A stretch of 63,286 nt of DNA, the filler included, from Rhabdomonas costata (Eukaryota), in assembly GCA_019059605.1 (NCBI GenBank). It is 37 parts of 37 records of this genome, joined end to end, with 100 filler letters (N's around TTAATTAATTAA, not from the genome) between each part and the next. Parts side by side here need not be neighbours in the genome. Positions count along the whole stretch, not along the records: positions 46,268 to 47,882 come from JAHMHO010011990.1; 36 more parts are not named here. The stretch is one strand, 5' to 3'. The notes beneath the pieces are model-generated. The model was not told the origin of the DNA. It worked only from the letters and a program-made list of their open reading frames with translations, and ran no database searches. The position numbers were made by a program, and so were the translations under genes. Below are positions 1,716 through 60,092 of this stretch, piece by piece. How positions within the stretch are numbered: position 1 is the stretch's first letter; every line of letters starts with the position of its first letter.

Positions 1716-3076
1716 ATGCGTTGAGAACCCAACCTGCATCGAGATGTATCAGTGCGCCCTTCGACTTGGCCTCCGCGCGACTCTTGAGGTTTCCCTTTCT
1801 GCCGAAACTTCCAAAGAAAAACGGAATCTCGAGCTCCGTTTCTTTTTTGGTATGGGCCAAAGTGCGGAAAAGTTTGCTGAGTTTTGAAAGTAACTAAGTT
1901 TTGGTTTTAAATGGGGTTTGTAATTTTCATGGTAAATGGAAAAATGCAAGAAGTTTGAAACGAAACGAACAGAAATCATATGCCCGTTACTGAGTCGACG
2001 TTTAACCTTGCTTAGATGCTTTTTGCATATGCCGCAATGAGCCATGGTGTATTTAATTCCACAGGGTGGGGGTTAAAACATCAGCGAGTTGCTGGCAGGC
2101 CTCTCTTGGCCTCTCTTCTCTTCTCATGCTTTCTTGCGATTTCGTGTCTATTGAAGGGTAGGGAAGCTGGAGTCTGATGGCCTGCATTGCATAGATCATG
2201 CCTTTCCCACCCCCCGAGCCCACATTCCGGTACTCCTTAAATGGAAATGGTTTTCCCTGGAATCAATGAAACCAAAACTTTTGTCTTCTTTCCTGAGAAA
2301 GTGGTGTCTCCTCCCCAACCGCAGCTCGGCGGTGGGGAAGGCGGAATATCAGTAAATGGCAAGCGGGTGAGCGGTTCCCAGCGTTATCACTGTGAAGATT
2401 CAATGAGATCTTTGATTTTGGTTTTCATTATTGCATTTTGGTCCATTTGATTCTGTGTTTGGAAAATTGTTTACACAGAATATGTCATTTTCTTTATAAA
2501 AAAGAATTTCTTACCAATCAGTATGGTGGTCACATTTCTCGGTATGCTCTCGTGTTTCTTGTTGGGGGAATGTGCTTGTAAGATACAGAAGAAGTACCCC
2601 AGGGACGCCTTCACCACCCCCGGGCGGATTCGCGTACAAATCAAAGACTCCTCGAAGCGCATGATCCCAAAGAGCGAGTTTGACACGGCCAGACATCCTC
2701 CCATGAACCCGGAATTCCCCACCAGTATGCATCTGCAGGAGGGCAACCTGCGTGGATGTTCTCTCTCATTGTGCACTTCTGTGTCGATATTTTGTGTTGC
2801 CAAGCCCGGCCCTTGTTTTGAAATTATGCCATTGTTGAGCTGCAACATGCATTTTCGAATCCAACAAAGGCTGTTGAGTTCTCGTGCTTCTCGTCCTTGT
2901 GTGGGTGTTCCTTCCCAGAGGATGCGGTGCTGGGCCGGATCGCCTCCCTGATCCCCCAACTGCGAGCCTCCGCGAAGACGGAGGTGACGTCCTCCTCTGC
3001 TGCCGCGGCTACTCCAGCTGGCTCCGCGGCAAAGCAGTCCGCAAATCCCAAGAAGGGGAAGAAGAAGGGGAAATGA
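1716..3076 (+). CDS. SRP19: Signal recognition particle 19 kDa subunit, 5' partial; exons 1716-1788, 2589-2724, 2919-3076
   Basis: The spliced translation CVENPTCIEMYQCALRLGLRATLE|KKYPRDAFTTPGRIRVQIK...EFPT|KDAVLGRIASLIPQLR...KKGKKKGK* matches the SRP19 motifs VENPT, KxYPRD and GRxRVQ and its basic tail. The GT-AG introns are in compatible phases. Confidence 0.93.
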
Positions 3077-3821
3077 GGCGTAGTCTACTTCCGTGAGCCG
3101 CAGCCACAAATGGGAGGTTCGGGGATTAGCTTGTAGAACGGTGACGCTTTTGGGCCATCGTACTGTGGACAGACTGTACTTGTGTTGTCGCTGCGACCAT
3201 CGTTGGTGTGACGTTTGGGGGTTGCTCATCTGCTAAACGTTTTCGCCTGCGCTTTTGTGTTAACGAAGAATTGGAGGTATTACAGCTATTTTTAGTAGAA
3301 GCGCTTCGACATTTTGTACCCCCCCCCCACNNNNNNNNNNNNNNNNNNNNNNNNNNNNNNNNNNNNNNNNNNNNTTAATTAATTAANNNNNNNNNNNNNN
3401 NNNNNNNNNNNNNNNNNNNNNNNNNNNNNNGGTTGGGGGTTCATGTACTGTAAGAGAAAGACAGCTCATCCGTAAATGAACCCCAAACCGCGAAGTTTCA
3501 AAGTGGTAGGGCACACATCACCTTAAAAGTGACAGAATATGCAAACATCAAACAGTCAAAACTTTTAGGAAAGTTTTGCATCAAAAGGAACAGTTTCCTT
3601 CAACAGCCTTGAAGCAATCACATTCAGCATAATATGGGGGATCCAGAGAAGCACAGCTGTTTTTCCGGTACCAAAACGGTACCCAGCCCAATATCTGACA
3701 TTGGTGACACATATCAAGGATGTCGGCGAACCTGCTTGGGGAAAAACCGCAGCAAAAAGAGAACTCCAATTTTGTCCGCATCTGCACTGAGTGTCCAGAG
3801 CGCGATGTCAAACAAAAGAAC

Positions 3822-17900: not shown

Positions 17901-19359
17901 TAAAATGAATTGCATATTGTGGAAGTCACTTCTATTTTGTTCATCCCAATTAATCCACAATAGTACAGTTTTCAAAATAGGCCGCATTATTAAAGTTTAA
18001 TTTAACTCCAATTTCAACGGCTGCTATGACTTGATTCGTACCAAGTTGCGTCAGTATAGTTCCTACTTACCAACACAAGACCATGCAGAGGACACAGTTG
18101 CACAGTCCTTATGCACTGATTTCACATTGGAAGATGACTGGTCTTTTACTTTTTTACTAATCTTCTCTCCAAGATGATTGATGTATATACATAGCCTGAC
18201 CCATGTCTTGCAGATGACTTTGACCAAATGGCACTCAGAAAAATCTGGAAATGTCTGTGTAACACGCACGTAACTTTACAATCTGTCTGTTCATGTAAAA
18301 CACATGAGCAATCTGCACCGTTACACTATCAGCGCCAATAAGTAGGACGTCTACAGTAGAAGACCGAATACCGATAATCCAAAATTTTCGCCTTGTGAAA
18401 TCCACTTTCCACTGTTGATGTCTATTCCTGTAAACACTAGTATATATAGCAAGATATCAGGATAGTAGGAACATGGAATGAAGTTGCACTAACTCTAGAT
18501 GAGAGGGAAAAAGCAACTGTGGAATGGATCCACACACCACAAACCTTACACACCTTCACTACATGCAAAGATGCTGATACACGCCACAAAACCACACACA
18601 ACACAACACAAACAACGCAACACAACACAAATCACAAACCACACTCGCAAAAGCATAACAGATCTGACCAACAACCTCACACAACCCTGAAATTCCACTG
18701 CTTTACCTCTTAATATTTAATCTGTTGATGTAAAACATATGTATGAAACTACCAAGCANNNNNNNNNNNNNNNNNNNNNNNNNNNNNNNNNNNNNNNNNN
18801 NNTTAATTAATTAANNNNNNNNNNNNNNNNNNNNNNNNNNNNNNNNNNNNNNNNNNNNGTGGTGGGTGTGTTTGGGGTGTTTGGGTCCAGTTCTCCTCGC
18901 GTAGAGTCGCCCCAATGACGGTTTCCCACGTCCGAACGAGGATCAGGTTGAAAATTGATCACTGAGTGGCATATTTTTTTTATCCCCGCTCGCACCCTTT
19001 TTTGGGGATCGTACAGGTCGCCCAAGTGTCATCGTTGTTTATTTTTGCAGCAGAACCCAGAAAGAATGTCCATTCTTTTCTCCCTTGCTTTCGTGCCTCC
19101 TTTGGTAACTAACTAAGCCCATAGCTTGGTGATACACGCACATATGCTGTGGTGTAGTGTCAACTGGTCGCATAGGGCCTTTTGACTTGTGCCAACCTGC
19201 GGTTTGCCACAATAGCTCAGAAGCGAAGAAGAACTGATACCCACCATCCAACCCAAGTCCCAACCTATACCACCAAGTACGAGTAGATAGCCACTCCTAC
19301 TCCGCTCATGTCCACTACGTGACCTTTCGCTCGTTACGAAGAGAAAGAGCAGGGCTGTT

Positions 19360-44456: not shown

Positions 44457-46267
44457 ACNNNNNNNNNNNNNNNNNNNNNNNNNNNNNNNNNNNNNNNNNN
44501 NNTTAATTAATTAANNNNNNNNNNNNNNNNNNNNNNNNNNNNNNNNNNNNNNNNNNNNATTTCTACCACGTGAATTTCTGGAAGGCATAGACAGGACGAA
44601 CTATTCAGCGTTCGATGGCAAACTACAGGGTACTTTCTCGAGAATTTAACACCAATCGCGCAAGACGCGGAGGGTCGACGTTTCCTGACAACCACGCCAA
44701 CAGCGAAGGGCCAAGGACCACTGGTGGGTACCGACACCCCTTGCCATATCTGCTCCATAAGCGGGAAGGTGCGAAGTGTGGTGCGGTTAGGGGAGGTCAT
44801 AAGGATGCTGAGAGAGCTGAACCAACCAAAACCGCCGATACGAGAGCTGCTGCGTTTCTGGAGGCCGATCAAACAGGGGAGAGAGGGGTAAATGCCCGCG
44901 AATCTTACACGCGGGGCGGCAGGAGGACGGTGCCAAGCCGCGCGACACGTGAAACAAAAGAGCAAAGGCAACGCGCCCACCTCCACAAAAATGACCCAAA
45001 CCCCTCATTCATCTGACACGTCTCTGTCTTCAAGGAGAGGAAGAGGGGCAAGACTCCAGAGAGCATTGAGGACAAACTCCATGAGAGATGGGGGAAAACC
45101 AGAGACACAGCGAATACGGACGCGACGCAGCGAAAATGTTCCTGAAAAAACCTTTCTCAAAAGCCGATCGCTCGGAGCAAAAGGTGCACAGCGCGCACAG
45201 ACTTACCTCGCTCAGATTCAAATTTTTGCGAAGACTTGAAGCGGAGCAGATCATTAGTGAGTGCAATTCGCCGTTGCAGTGTTCGACCCATGCGTTTCCG
45301 TTCGTCTTAAGCACTTCCGGATCTTGTTTCCGTCCGGAGCATACCCACACCGCCACGCGGTTGCAGTTGCCAGTTGCTACAGAACTGCCCTCGAAGCAGT
45401 TCCGAAACGCTTCAGGTACAAAAGGTTGTCTCCTCCATAATCCTCGCAGACATATATAACCGGCCTCGCGAAACGCTGGAGGCCCGTCACCGCGCCTGCA
45501 CCAACACGGAAGTACCCACCCCTGCCTTTTCCAAGTGCCGCTTCGCTTCTTTGGTTTGGTTTGGCCCTGGCTAGAGAGGAGGGATTACGGGGTGCCGTGC
45601 AGAGCAAGCTTGGACACATGGCGGTTCGGCTGACATCCAAGCAGTATGGGCCCACCTGACGCAATTTGAAACTCTCAGGCAGGCAACTGGTCGCTGTTGG
45701 TGTGGTTGTCAGAAAACGTCGAGCGTCTCTCGTTCAGAAATTTTCGGTCCCAGACCCCTGCTGCCACTGGAGTTTGAGTAGCAGGTCTGCAGCCGCGCCG
45801 TCTAATCTGTTGCCAACCAACGCGCTCTGAATTTTTTTTGGTCCCGTGCGTTTCGGCGGACATCCGTGACAAGAACACAGAAAATAAAGGACACCTGCAC
45901 CCCACCAGTCGGAAAAAGAGAACCTCAAGCGTCCGAGTCTTTCAGTCGTACATCCCACCAAGGGCTTCCAACACAAAACTCACGCAGCGGAAAAAAACAA
46001 GACGAACCACTCCGACGAATCTTGGTCGTTTTGTCTGCAATCCAGCATCTGCACAAGCTGGAGAGCATACTGAAAGACCGGCTAAAGTAAAGCCATAAAA
46101 CCAGGAAAGCTCCTTCCGACTGGAAGGAGAAACGAACGATTGCTTTTGCTGAAAAGGAAGTCAGCGANNNNNNNNNNNNNNNNNNNNNNNNNNNNNNNNN
46201 NNNNNNNNNNNTTAATTAATTAANNNNNNNNNNNNNNNNNNNNNNNNNNNNNNNNNNNNNNNNNNNN

Positions 46268-46470
46268 GTGGATGTCATTCATTGCTATTCTGTTCCGGCT
46301 CTTGGTGTGAAGGTTGACGCCATTCCTGGCAGGGTTTGGTGGGTCTGTGTTGGTGCTTTGTGTCCTGGGTAGTATTCCGGTAATGCGCTGAGCTTTGTGG
46401 GTCGGGTCATGGTTTTATGCCTTGTGGTGTCATTGCGTATTCTGATGTTGCGTCCGCTTTCATGGTTTCG
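46268..46470 (+). CDS. cox2: Cytochrome c oxidase subunit II, CuA-binding C-terminal part (mitochondrial type), interrupted by TAG at 46370-46372 and one missing base at about 46382; 3' end undefined
   Basis: The frame from 46268 reads VDVIHCYSVPALGVKVDAIPGRVWWVCVGALCPG*YSG. After the 2 nt 'aa', the frame from 46384 reads CAELCGSGHGFMP. Spacing is identical to canonical DVxHS..VPxLGxKxDAIPGR-x10-PGxYxGQCxExCGxxHxFMP. Confidence 0.9.
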
Positions 46471-46596
46471 TGCCTTCCTGATGTTCCTTCCTATCCGGCT
46501 TTGTGCTCCCAAGTTAGTATCCAGGTCTCGTGTGTGTATTCTTATGGTGTGTTGGTGTCGAAGTGTGTCGTTGTGTCCGTTTCAGAGGTCTGTAGC

Positions 46597-47450
46597 AACC
46601 ATGCTCTCTGTGTCAGTCAACCATGCCGTGTGTCAACCATGCCGTGTGTGTCAACCATGCTCTCTGTCTCCGGTTCTGTCAACCTTGCTCTCTCTCTACC
46701 ATGCTCTCTGTTGCTGTGTGCTTGTACTGTAGGGGTGTTGGTGTGGCGGTTTGGTATTGCGTGCTGTGTTTGTGGGCTTTACTTCGCGTGCGTGTGCGTT
46801 CTTCTTCTTATAGGTATAGGTGTAGGGTTAGGTATAGGTATAGGTATAGGTATAGGTTCTGCTGTAGGTGTAGGTGTAGGGTTAGGCTGTAGGTGTAGGT
46901 GTAGGTGTAGGTGTAAGGGTTAGGCTGTAGGTGTTGTGTCTGTGTTCTGTCTCAACCATGCTCACTGTTAACCATGCTCACTGTTGTTGTTGTGGAGTCG
47001 GTGCTGTAGTGCTGTCAGGATGTGGTGGTGTGGACGTTGGGTTGCTGTGGGTGTCGGTGTCCGTGTCAGTGGTTGGTGGCGTTGCTGGTGTCGTAGTCGT
47101 AGTCGTTGTCGTAGTCGTAGGGTGTTCGCGTCTCTGTTTCTACAACCATGCTCTCAACAACCATGCTCTTATGCTTCGTAACCATGCTCTTTGTAACCAT
47201 GCTCCCTCTGTTCCTGTCTCCGTAGTGTTGGTTTAGCGCGCTGTGTGTTCCTGGCTGTTGTGTTGTAGTGCTTGGTGGTTGATGCGTTGGGTTGTCGTGC
47301 TGTTGGTTGTCAGGGCTTGTGCTGTTGGTTGTCAGGGCGTCTGGTGTTGTTGGGTTGATGCGTCTCAGTCTCATGGTGTCACGGTCTCAAGGTCTCATGG
47401 TGTCAGTCTCCGTCTCAGTCTCTCCAACCATGCTCTTTCTAACCATGCTC
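46597..47450 (+). repeat. Dispersed AACCATGC(T) motif, 12 exact copies plus 2 variants in 4 clusters, within G/T-biased DNA
   Basis: Exact copies start at 46597, 46619, 46635, 46653, 46954, 46970, 47144, 47159, 47180, 47195, 47426 and 47441. Variants lie at 46681 and 46697. Confidence 0.9.
46810..46932 (+). repeat. Degenerate hexamer tract (TAGGTA/TAGGTG/TAGGGT)n
   Basis: Tandem hexamers are directly visible. Confidence 0.85.
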
Positions 47451-49196
47451 TCAGCCTCCGTCTCATGGCCTTCCTGTTTCTGTCTATAGTGTCATGTCCT
47501 CTGTTAGCGTATGGTGTATGGTGTAGGGTGGTGTCATGGTAGTCGTAGGGTTGGTGCTGCTGTTGTTGTGTCGTAGGGTCGTGTTGGTAGGGTCGTAGGG
47601 TTAGCGCTTGTTGTGTTCTTGCTGTCATGGTGTTACGATCTGTGTTAGTGCTTAGGATGTGTCGATGCTGTTGGGTTGAGGGCTGATGTTGGGATGTTGG
47701 GATGTTGGGATGTTGGGTTCGTGTGGATGGGTTCGTGTTGATCTTTCTTTCTTCGGTGGGTTCTCTTTCTCCCCTACAGTCATGCTGAGTTACTGCATTC
47801 TTCACTCATAGTCATGCTGATACCCTTACCCTTACGCCGAACTCAACAACGACATCCACCCTACCACTCCAGAAGCGCGAAGNNNNNNNNNNNNNNNNNN
47901 NNNNNNNNNNNNNNNNNNNNNNNNNNTTAATTAATTAANNNNNNNNNNNNNNNNNNNNNNNNNNNNNNNNNNNNNNNNNNNNTGTTGGTTGGAAACTCTC
48001 ACTTTTGAGATGAAACAGGTCATATCGTGTAACGTCAATATACCGAGCGTTTATACGGTCATAGGCTCTGAATAATATATAATGGCTGTCGTACTCGCTG
48101 GTAATTTTTTTGGTGATGGGAACTAACTTTTTGCTGGGCTCAGCTGGGCTCGGGCCGCTGCTTGGTTGACTGATGCGGGGACCTCGCCTTTGGAGCTGAC
48201 TTAGGTTTCATGTGGCGACGCGTTTCCAAGCGAAGAAATTTCAGGAAGGGGGAGTCCCCCCGCATAAATTTCCCTATCAGCGGGGGAAGGAAGGGGATGG
48301 GATAGACCACTCAACGTTGAGCGAGAAAGGCAGCCAAAGGAAGGCAAACACTGAAAGACGAAGATGAATAGTCCAACAGGGATGGAGAGCTGAAGAAGCG
48401 AGCCAGGGTTTCGCACCATTCCGCGACATCTTTTGAACTCTGCTTTTGAACTCTGAGGACATCTAATATCTCAAGAACGGTGTGCAAGTACGTGAAGTAT
48501 GTGCGTAGGTGTGTGTGCGGGCAGGGCAGTGGATGAAAGAAAGACTCATACAGTCGTTTTGTCGGCCCTGGAACTTATCCACGGTCGTAACATGAGCGGG
48601 CATCCCAAAGACTGTGTCCGGGCCACAGCTGTGAATAATGCAGAAAAATGCAGGTGGTGACCGCAGGAGGGAGGGGGTAAGAGGAGGGTATCGGGGAATG
48701 GAAGGTTCGTCGAAACATAAGTTAGAGGAAGCGTATGCAAGCAAATATTCCCTGGAAAAAATGTCTTCCTCGGCAGGCTTGGGGAAAAGCCCCCACCAAA
48801 TCCCGCTGCTCCCATTACGCATTATGCATTGCTATAAAAAGAAAAGCACCGGAAATGCTTTACAAAAATGTCAAAAGAGGAAATATAGGGAGTCTAGGTT
48901 CGCGTTCTGGAGTTCCCTTGCAGTTGAGTGCAGTGAGCCCTGGGCGACTTTCCCCCTTGCTCGTTTGTGCTTATGTTCACCACGGTTCACCCAAGCTCGC
49001 AGTGATTAAGGGCCGGGGGTGGGTTGACCCAAGCGAGCTTGAAAAAAGAAGCTCACAGAGGGAATATATCTCCAATATTGTGTAAACTGAGATCACAGCG
49101 GTGGAAGAAAATATGGCATACGTTCGGCAGTGAACCTTTTTCTAGGGGACACGTGCATCGCTTCCTAACCCCCTGCGAGATCAGGTATATAGAGAT

Positions 49197-58249: not shown

Positions 58250-59398
58250 ATCGTCACGCAACAAGGAGGCACTTGAGAAGCCGTTCACGAGATTTGCAAC
58301 ATCTTGTGCGGTGAGCCCCCTGACCACACACACAGCAATGGCTGACTTCGCCAATGCACACCAGAGGTCGTCATTTTTCCGAAGAAACCGGATTTTGGAA
58401 AATCCGTTCACGAAAATCGCAATGTAACGCGGACTAAGGGGCTCTTCCAAGGTTGTCGCTGCCACCGCTAGGGCTTCCCATAAATCGTGGTCATCAGAGA
58501 GATGGTCAACCTTTGAAAACCCGTTCACGCAGTTGGAGAGTCCTTGTGGAGTGAGGCGATCTTTCATAGCGGTCGCCCCGGCTGCTAGACCTGCCCACAG
58601 AGCTTGCTCGCTGAGAACAAGTCCTACCTTAGAAAATCCATTCACACAGTTCGAGACATCTTGAGGCGTTAAATCACCAACTATCCTAGTCCCAGCCTTC
58701 ACCAAGGACATCCACAAAGGTCGACTTTCAAGAACTGACACAGCCTTCGAAAATCCATTCACGCACATCGATAAATCCCTTGCCCTCATCTGCTTTGACA
58801 CAGGGATAGCCCTTTTGGCGAGCATATTCCAGAGCACCGAGTCTCTCAGATGAAGCTGCACCTTCGAGAAACTATTCACCAAAGTAGAAATGAGTTGGGC
58901 ATCAAAATTTGGAGCATCCCCCTCACGCAAACGTCGAACCGTGGCCTTGGAAAGGGCTTCCCACAAAATTGCATCTTCAATGTGCTTCGGAGACTTCGAG
59001 AGAATGCTCACGCACCTCTCCAGGCTCCAAGCGTCAAAGCTGCCCGCTTGCTGCGAAACAATATCCACCAGGGGGGCGAGGTGAGCCTTCTCGGCAGGTG
59101 AGAGGCGATGCGTTCGTTCCTGAATCAGACAGCGAAGTTCCCATGAGACGTTCTCAACGGAAACCTTGCCCGATGGCCCCTTGCTGAATGAGCGCCAGAG
59201 TCGAAGTGGGTGGAAAAAGAGGAAGTTCTGGGCTCTTAAGCAACCCGTCGGTTGTCGAAGTGCACCGTTCAAATGGGAAGCTATGAAAAATCGAAAGCCA
59301 AATGTTGAGCGAAATGACACAGCGGGGACAACAAAGGCGGGCGGTGCAAAGCTGAGCACTGGGGCCAGGCCTTGCTTTCCACAGCAGCGGCTCAACAT
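58250..59398 (-). CDS. Organelle-targeted helical-repeat RNA-binding protein (OPR/HPR/FASTK-RAP-like), at least 6 repeats of about 39 aa, intronless, 3' truncated
   Basis: The repeats read LWxxLAxxA......LTPQxxSNxVNGFSKV. The N-terminus is rich in Arg/Ser/Phe and lacks acidic residues, like a presequence. Confidence 0.8.
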
Positions 59399-60092
59399 CG
59401 TCTAGGCCTTCTCGGCAAAGCCAACAGAATAGCAGCAAGGGGCCGTGTGGAAACAGTATAACAAGCTGAAAGGTTGTGGAAACACGATAACACCTCGCTT
59501 GCCTGCATTCCGATTATTGTCTGATGGACTTTGCGGCCAATTAACTGAGCAAGTGAGGGGTTAATGTCGAATATATCCCTCAATACGATGTGCATCTCAC
59601 TTAGGTGGATTAGTTCTAAATTGGGAGATCAAGCGGCTTAACCTAAAATAATCTAAGCGAAACCATGAGAAAGGGAACCACTACATTGGTCTTGATTTGT
59701 CTTTTCCAGACATTTTGTGGTGGACTATTTTGGCTTGTTAGAGCGCGAAAGTGATACTACACATCTGCGATGAGGTCTATCCCACCCCAACCGCCAAGTT
59801 TCGTTTAACAACGTTCAACGGTTTACAAGGTTTACAACGGTAAACAGTTACCACACCCAACNNNNNNNNNNNNNNNNNNNNNNNNNNNNNNNNNNNNNNN
59901 NNNNNTTAATTAATTAANNNNNNNNNNNNNNNNNNNNNNNNNNNNNNNNNNNNNNNNNNNNAAAACATTTGTGCCCGGGGATTTTAAATTGGATTTCAGC
60001 TGTACTCACTGCTTTCATTGCTTTTCTTTGTGCTCTGCTGTTCTTCAACTCGATCAAACTCCCTTCCATAAAAAGGTGAGTTTGTGGGGCAG

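Follow-up and report, generated by a model that had tools for sequence, protein, structure and literature searches.

A fragment of mitochondrial cox2 in DNA of Rhabdomonas costata carries two features that look like lesions: an in-frame TAG and, shortly downstream, a reading frame that is one base short. The TAG is a tyrosine codon of a variant mitochondrial code that has already been published. For the gap, the best explanation is that an extra copy of cox2 in mitochondrial DNA (mtDNA), non-functional and probably partial, has suffered a DNA lesion, a reading that we give about an even chance of being correct. We infer that the organism's DNA truly lacks the base and that the fragment does not belong to the expressed copy. 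In the proposed course of events, a recombining, repeat-rich mtDNA would scatter extra cox2 copies, as in Euglena gracilis; a young defective or partial copy would lose one base in a conserved Tyr codon; and an intact cox2 copy elsewhere would supply the protein. The contig would break inside the gene at the branch between copies, which is compatible with a contig start lacking a primer footprint. A young defective copy would explain together the intact look of the fragment, the complex change within one codon, and the primer-free start inside the gene. An earlier note on this DNA had put forward RNA editing or recoding, with a non-functional mtDNA fragment, mtDNA moved to the nucleus (NUMT), and an amplification error as alternatives; these alternatives are favored here over editing, given a gap that is unique to the fragment and eight of eight related loci that are in frame.

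The window (i.e., the whole stretch of DNA that was analyzed, positions 1-63286, 63,286 nt) consists of 37 unrelated contigs of 1605-1615 nt separated by 36 identical 100-nt spacers (44 N, TTAATTAATTAA, and 44 N). The artificial spacer at 46168-46267, for example, stands between two unrelated contigs. The contigs are ordered by descending length, and adjacency across a spacer is without meaning. Because the window is made of 37 separate contigs, the contrast previously drawn between the cox2 segment and the nuclear exons in the window is uninformative on linkage. The window has a GC content of about 50%, and other contigs carry ordinary fragments, including ABC-2 transporter, PBP-like, and response-regulator domains. 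A G/T-only run of at least 8 nt (up to 28 nt) opens 21 of the 37 contigs (e.g., 18859-18886), and a C/A-only run of at least 8 nt (up to 32 nt) closes 24 of them (e.g., 1584-1615). The reversed patterns occur at 0 of 37 contig starts and 0 of 37 contig ends, and 1.7% of internal positions start such runs. We take the terminal runs to be the footprint of G/T-degenerate primers of the type used in PCR-based whole-genome amplification (WGA) kits. The source DNA was evidently amplified with degenerate primers, and, since the runs at the contig ends resemble untrimmed primers, the terminal 10-30 nt of many contigs are perhaps non-genomic. The published R. costata assembly is similar in its description, with about 50% GC, contigs of about 1-2 kb, and DNA amplified with a degenerate-primer kit (PMC8219788), of which the window shows the traces. 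That draft is described as derived from sorted cells by Sigma WGA4 amplification at 10-20x coverage (143,763 contigs; N50, 1194; 51% GC), and its mitochondrial contigs as having required manual curation by read mapping (PMC8219788).

The cox2 fragment lies on a 1,615-nt contig (46268-47882; all features of this contig are given on the plus strand) with a G+T content of 0.68 and an A content of 0.12. The G+T content of the remaining 36 contigs is 0.41-0.58, and that of related cox2 loci from metagenomes (i.e., L001, L002, L006, L007, and L008) is 0.66-0.76. The first half of the contig has a G+T content of 0.70 and the second half 0.66, showing that the composition is of the mitochondrial type over the full length. 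No similarity to this contig was found among the 36 other contigs of the window. Downstream of cox2, the region at 46441-47882 is G+T-rich and repeat-rich, with no recognizable gene and no in-frame stop nearby. The repeats fill the approximately 1.4 kb 3' of cox2 and include tandem repeats of a 6-nt unit at 46809-46929 and further direct repeats, and AACCATGC occurs 12 times on the plus strand of the contig versus once in the rest of the window. No inverted repeats were found in the contig, and an Rfam search of it gave no match at E values of up to 1. The first base of the contig falls within cox2, and a primer-like G/T run is absent at its start.

Homology identifies the segment at 46268-46440 as the 3' end (173 nt) of a mitochondrial cox2 of the euglenid type. 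Read in frame 1, the sequence from 46268 on gives VDVIHCYSVPALGVKVDAIPGRVWWVCVGALCPG, TAG (46370-46372), and YSG, followed by the two bases AA (46382-46383), and the frame from 46384 opens with CAELCGSGHGFMPCGVIAY. The first piece (46268-46381; VDVIH...PG-TAG-YSG; 38 codons, including the His of DVIH) matched the Pfam COX2 profile PF00116 at positions 64-100 of 120 (E value, 2.7e-8; 34.2 bits; cutoff, 22). The second piece (46384-46440), in the shifted frame, contributes the CuA-motif residues C, E, C, H, and M; searched alone against Pfam, it gave no match, and it aligns with residues 178-196 (i.e., the last 19) of the 196-aa COX2 chain 8iuf_C2 (E value, 6.6e-4). The translations thus hold the full CuA set, that is, the His of DVIH followed by C-x-E-x-C-x-x-x-H-x-x-M (CAELCGSGHGFM), residues that we take to be the CuA ligands. 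These two matches uphold the earlier claim that the segment is collinear with COX2 and keeps the CuA ligands. The claimed in-frame TAG and one-base frameshift just before the CuA motif are likewise present, and the reading frame through the CuA domain is not continuous, being one base short at 46382-46383. Third codon positions are T-biased, as claimed, with T at 36, G at 15, C at 9, and A at none of the 60 codons counted. TGA is absent from the 57 codons of the fragment, in which both Trp codons are TGG, and from five related cox2 genes as well. The description of the gene as cryptic is not supported: the N-terminal two thirds are missing through a contig-edge effect, the contig starting at VDVIH. 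Since the first base of the contig already belongs to cox2, it is the contig edge that cuts the gene.

The database proteins that share words with the fragment are P0002 and P0155 only. The closest, P0002, is 76% identical to the 41-aa read-through of the fragment (TAG as X), and its best match among solved structures is COX2 chain 8iuf_C2 (E value, 2.1e-16), whose entry code appears in a paper on the Euglena gracilis respiratory chain (PMC10884005). This E. gracilis COX2 is also the closest solved structure to the fragment, and a short C terminus ending in Tyr is common to both. A HMMER scan with P0002 identified a small clade of G/V/S/C-rich COX2 fragments (P0003 to P0008 and P0017), all from metagenome and run assemblies. 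Scanning metagenomes with an alignment of P0002-type COX2 fragments returned 80 loci, of which L001 to L008 are close relatives; they represent five distinct sequences (L003, L004, and L005 are identical, as are L006 and L007), and P0155 is the ORF of L006/L007. The DNA of P0002, P0004, P0005, P0006, P0008, and P0017 was sought among the 80 loci by tblastn and is not there. L001 to L008 are 69-78% identical to the fragment at the nucleotide level over contig nt 1-163 only, the similarity ending at nt 163. In all eight (five distinct sequences), cox2 runs without interruption for about 199 codons, and neither TAA nor TGA occurs in frame.

Comparison with these relatives assigns a residue to the in-frame TAG. 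The codon aligned to it is TAC in L001 and L002 and TAG in L003 to L008, and the aligned residue is Y in P0002, P0004, and P0005. The next conserved Tyr, which precedes the first Cys, is encoded by TAG in L001, L002, L006, L007, and L008 and by TAC in L003 to L005. Across the five related cox2 genes there are 20 in-frame TAG codons, and Tyr stands at those columns in 66 of 80 comparisons (36 TAY and 30 TAG), with other residues in 14. The ORFs of P0003 and P0008 end exactly before the first of these two Tyr positions and that of P0002 exactly before the second. Soukal et al. (2021, PMC8219788) have published the assignments UGA=Trp and UAG=Tyr for the mitochondria of R. costata, a heterotrophic euglenid, and in the same account UAG is given as not reassigned in E. 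gracilis. On this alignment, the TAG at 46370-46372 is an ordinary sense codon for Tyr in the published variant code, which makes it no lesion and no site of UAG-to-UGG editing. What stands of the earlier interpretation is a mitochondrial cox2 with a TAG read as sense; the TAG as a lesion, or as a site of UAG-to-UGG (Trp) editing, was rejected because the relatives have Tyr (TAC or TAG) there. The occurrence of TAG as Tyr in five distinct environmental cox2 sequences indicates that the reassignment marks a clade, not a single species. A reassignment published for one species is thereby extended to a group of uncultured relatives, which is of modest specialist value. Each of the five environmental cox2 genes has about 9-10 Tyr codons, and between 1 and 8 of these are TAG. 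In L001 to L008, the G+C content varies between 0.49 and 0.65, with A confined to 8-16%.

At the gap, the relatives read GGT/GGG TAG TGT (L001, L002, L006, L007, and L008) or GGG TAC TGC (L003 to L005), and the fragment reads GGT AA TGC, with a two-base remnant (46382-46383) where the relatives carry a full Tyr codon. In each of the seven related proteins that cover the site, the Gly and the first Cys are separated by a single residue (Y in five and F in two), and 8iuf_C2 likewise has one residue (177) between G and C. Because the Gly-to-Cys spacing is exactly one residue in the relatives and in 8iuf_C2, the fragment is one base short. Eight of eight related loci keep the frame, showing a gap that is, in this comparison, unique to the fragment. 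Deriving AA from TAG, TAC, or TAT takes two changes, a deletion and a substitution, and the insertion of a single base restores no Tyr codon unless UAA also encodes Tyr. The earlier suggestion that one inserted C (giving GQC) or U (giving GNC) would restore the protein was dropped: neither Gln nor Asn fits a site with Tyr in eight of eight loci and with Y in five and F in two of the seven proteins. A shifted frame read through TAA (W V V F R TAA C...) was also rejected, since by eye it fits the conserved G-x-Y-x-G more poorly than frame 1 does. Over 56 codons, the fragment and the five relatives share 18-25 identical codons and differ at 21-27 synonymous and 8-14 non-synonymous codons, on both sides of the gap. 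The 16 residues after the gap (CAELCGSGHGFMPCGV) are identical to those of L001 to L008 despite many synonymous differences. The excess of synonymous over non-synonymous differences, both before and after the gap, means that the damage is either recent or not real. The contig also has variants of its own, such as WWVCVGALCPG.

A defective copy in mtDNA is supported by the disabling frameshift on a contig of mitochondrial-type composition, truncation being beyond judging at a contig edge. Since the change from a Tyr codon to AA takes a deletion plus a substitution, a complex mutation in DNA fits better than a single polymerase slip. Short linear molecules with "pseudogenes and short gene fragments" beside full-length genes, attributed to ongoing recombination, are described for E. 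gracilis mtDNA (Spencer and Gray 2011, cited in Dobakova et al. 2015, PMC4700960). The fragment resembles these as a respiratory gene copy that is partial or defective and lies on short, repeat-rich, mitochondrial-type DNA; the mtDNA of E. gracilis is A+T-rich according to the same source, whereas the contig at 46268-47882 is G+T-rich and A-poor. A complete R. costata cox2 is reported from a differently named short contig (PMC8219788). By its published description, that gene is of the euglenid type with in-frame TAG at Tyr positions, as is the fragment, and differs from it in being complete and without a sign of editing (PMC8219788), whereas the fragment lacks one base and is cut off by the edge of its contig. 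What speaks against a defective copy is that, in every respect other than the gap, the fragment has the look of a functional gene, with all CuA residues kept; a defective copy must therefore be young. In addition, protein searches with the 41-aa read-through for a second cox2 copy from the same source gave only P0002 and P0155, which come from other sources, so that no intact copy from the same organism was among the proteins found. The same intactness, with clear purifying selection on the rest of the fragment, would be expected if an amplification or assembly artifact had struck the true 3' end of a functional cox2, the base being lost (and a neighboring base made odd) during PCR-based WGA or at a thinly covered contig end. 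This is a serious rival, because the DNA was amplified with degenerate primers and the gap lies about 115 nt from the contig start, at a contig end, where assemblies are weakest; the primer remnants at 21 of 37 contig starts (G/T-only) and 24 of 37 contig ends (C/A-only) and the low coverage (10-20x) reported for the Sigma WGA4-amplified draft (PMC8219788) add to it. We nevertheless regard an artifact as possible rather than probable. The site is outside any homopolymer, and its position outside any G/T-only primer-like run led us to reject a primer-derived error as the cause of the gap. Reaching AA from any Tyr codon requires two changes and not one, and the stretch of 114 nt from the contig end to the lesion encodes a conserved peptide without a flaw, so this contig end is not of generally low quality. 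Indel errors in the consensus are, moreover, rare in Illumina assemblies.

The two other explanations would place the fragment in the nucleus or its repair in the RNA. A NUMT, that is, a stretch of mtDNA of at least 1.6 kb that moved to the nucleus and is decaying there, would have the look seen here of a frameshift in an otherwise intact fragment if it were young, and nuclear and organellar contigs are mixed in the assembly. Such an origin seems unlikely to us, in that the composition is of the mitochondrial type over the whole contig with no nuclear-type flank, the TAG codon and the G+T bias match those of the mtDNA relatives, and no link to nuclear sequence exists within the window. Even less probable is genuine recoding, in which the gap would lie in the only functional cox2 and either the mRNA would gain one nucleotide at GGU^AA or the ribosome would shift; the models are U insertion, as in kinetoplastids, and "stutter" insertion beside an identical base, as in the heteroloboseid BB2. 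The conserved frame does resume exactly one base out of register with the CuA residues intact, purifying selection is strong downstream of the gap, and mitochondrial mRNAs are edited in euglenozoan sister groups. The cox2 genes of the clade also lack an encoded stop, so some RNA-level processing is likely anyway. Set against this, correction is unnecessary at the site in eight of eight related loci, and one added base would not yield the Tyr codon of the clade unless UAA also encodes Tyr. No slippery heptamer X XXY YYZ was found by eye at TCC GGT AAT GCG, and the RNA at 46360-46480 folds in an ordinary way (z score, -0.19), 78 of 200 shuffles folding as well; a programmed ribosomal frameshift was rejected on these two grounds. 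Guide-like pairing across the gap, sought on both strands of the 1.6-kb contig, was 0-15 nt, versus a control mean of 11.7 nt (standard deviation, 4.8; maximum, 28), and a guide RNA on the contig was rejected, as the pairing does not exceed controls. Editing or recoding of the frameshift, the central proposal of the earlier note, is thus disfavored by in-frame relatives with Tyr and by the lack of a slippery site, a structure, or a guide-like complement.

Kinetoplastid cox2 offers a parallel for recoding, as a euglenozoan frameshift in the C-terminal half of the same gene; Benne and coworkers are said to have reported in 1986 that it is corrected by four inserted U, guided in cis. The frameshift site in the fragment is presumably different from the kinetoplastid editing site, as the earlier note also stated. 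Four bases are missing there versus one here, and in place of a cis guide the contig has no guide-like complement, and intact relatives exist. The heteroloboseid BB2 is likewise a discoban (an amoeba), and apparent one-base frameshifts in its mitochondrial DNA are corrected at the RNA level (Yang et al. 2017, PMC5421314). Single nucleotides are reported to be inserted there at 475 sites in almost all genes (PMC5421314), whereas here one site in one copy is affected and none in five related cox2 genes. The published accounts of the two euglenids studied so far describe mitochondrial editing as absent, for cox1, cox2, cob, and nad4 of R. costata (PMC8219788) and for E. gracilis (PMC4700960). Were the gap to prove real and to lie in an expressed gene, the reports of editing-free euglenid mitochondria would be overturned: Euglenida would have its first case of RNA editing or recoding, and this might tie in with insertion editing in kinetoplastids and diplonemids. 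With the TAG half of the observation explained by the published code and the gap half most simply by a defective copy or an artifact of the amplified and fragmented assembly, a likely false positive for editing is removed. The finding is already known in kind, because both the code variant and the fragment-rich architecture have been published.

The 3' end of cox2 shows a further peculiarity. No encoded stop follows the conserved C-terminal Tyr in L001, L002, L004, L007, L008, or the fragment (46441-46970). Four loci lack an in-frame TAA as far as the contig end, over 178-407 codons, and L004 lacks one for 335 codons; the first in-frame TAA of the fragment lies 176 codons beyond the last conserved Tyr. 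The codon at the final Tyr position is a TAG in both L007 and L008. With no stop encoded 3' of cox2, termination therefore depends on RNA processing or something else. Genes for cox2 without an encoded stop near the conserved C terminus are of modest specialist value.

Several additional observations concern the related loci. L001 (464-1237) and L002 (146-918), which come from one metagenome, are 94% identical in cox2 over 774 nt, and their flanks are unrelated on both sides; either the contigs belong to two strains, or a single gene occurs on more than one molecule of a recombining mtDNA. In L004 (about 800-2000 and 2600-3230), the strand that encodes cox2 also carries, upstream of it, a cytochrome b-like frame identified by eye in the translation, and TAA is again absent between the two. 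The ORF of P0006 (88 aa) departs from the COX2 alignment before Gly-Tyr-x-x-Gly-Tyr-Cys, its residues 79-88 being unrelated, and P0006 could be another broken or recombined cox2 copy.

Elsewhere in the window, two contigs are GC-poor. The contig at 39419-41032 has a GC content of 31%, versus about 50% for most others, and its minus strand is a single end-to-end open frame of 538 codons, rich in N, S, and T and without a Pfam match; this contig may be foreign DNA, either a contaminant or viral. The contig at 17145-18758 is likewise GC-poor (37%). On the minus strand at 58250-59401, a 384-codon open frame without a Pfam match encodes a repeating motif of about 36-38 residues (...NCVNGFSK...).
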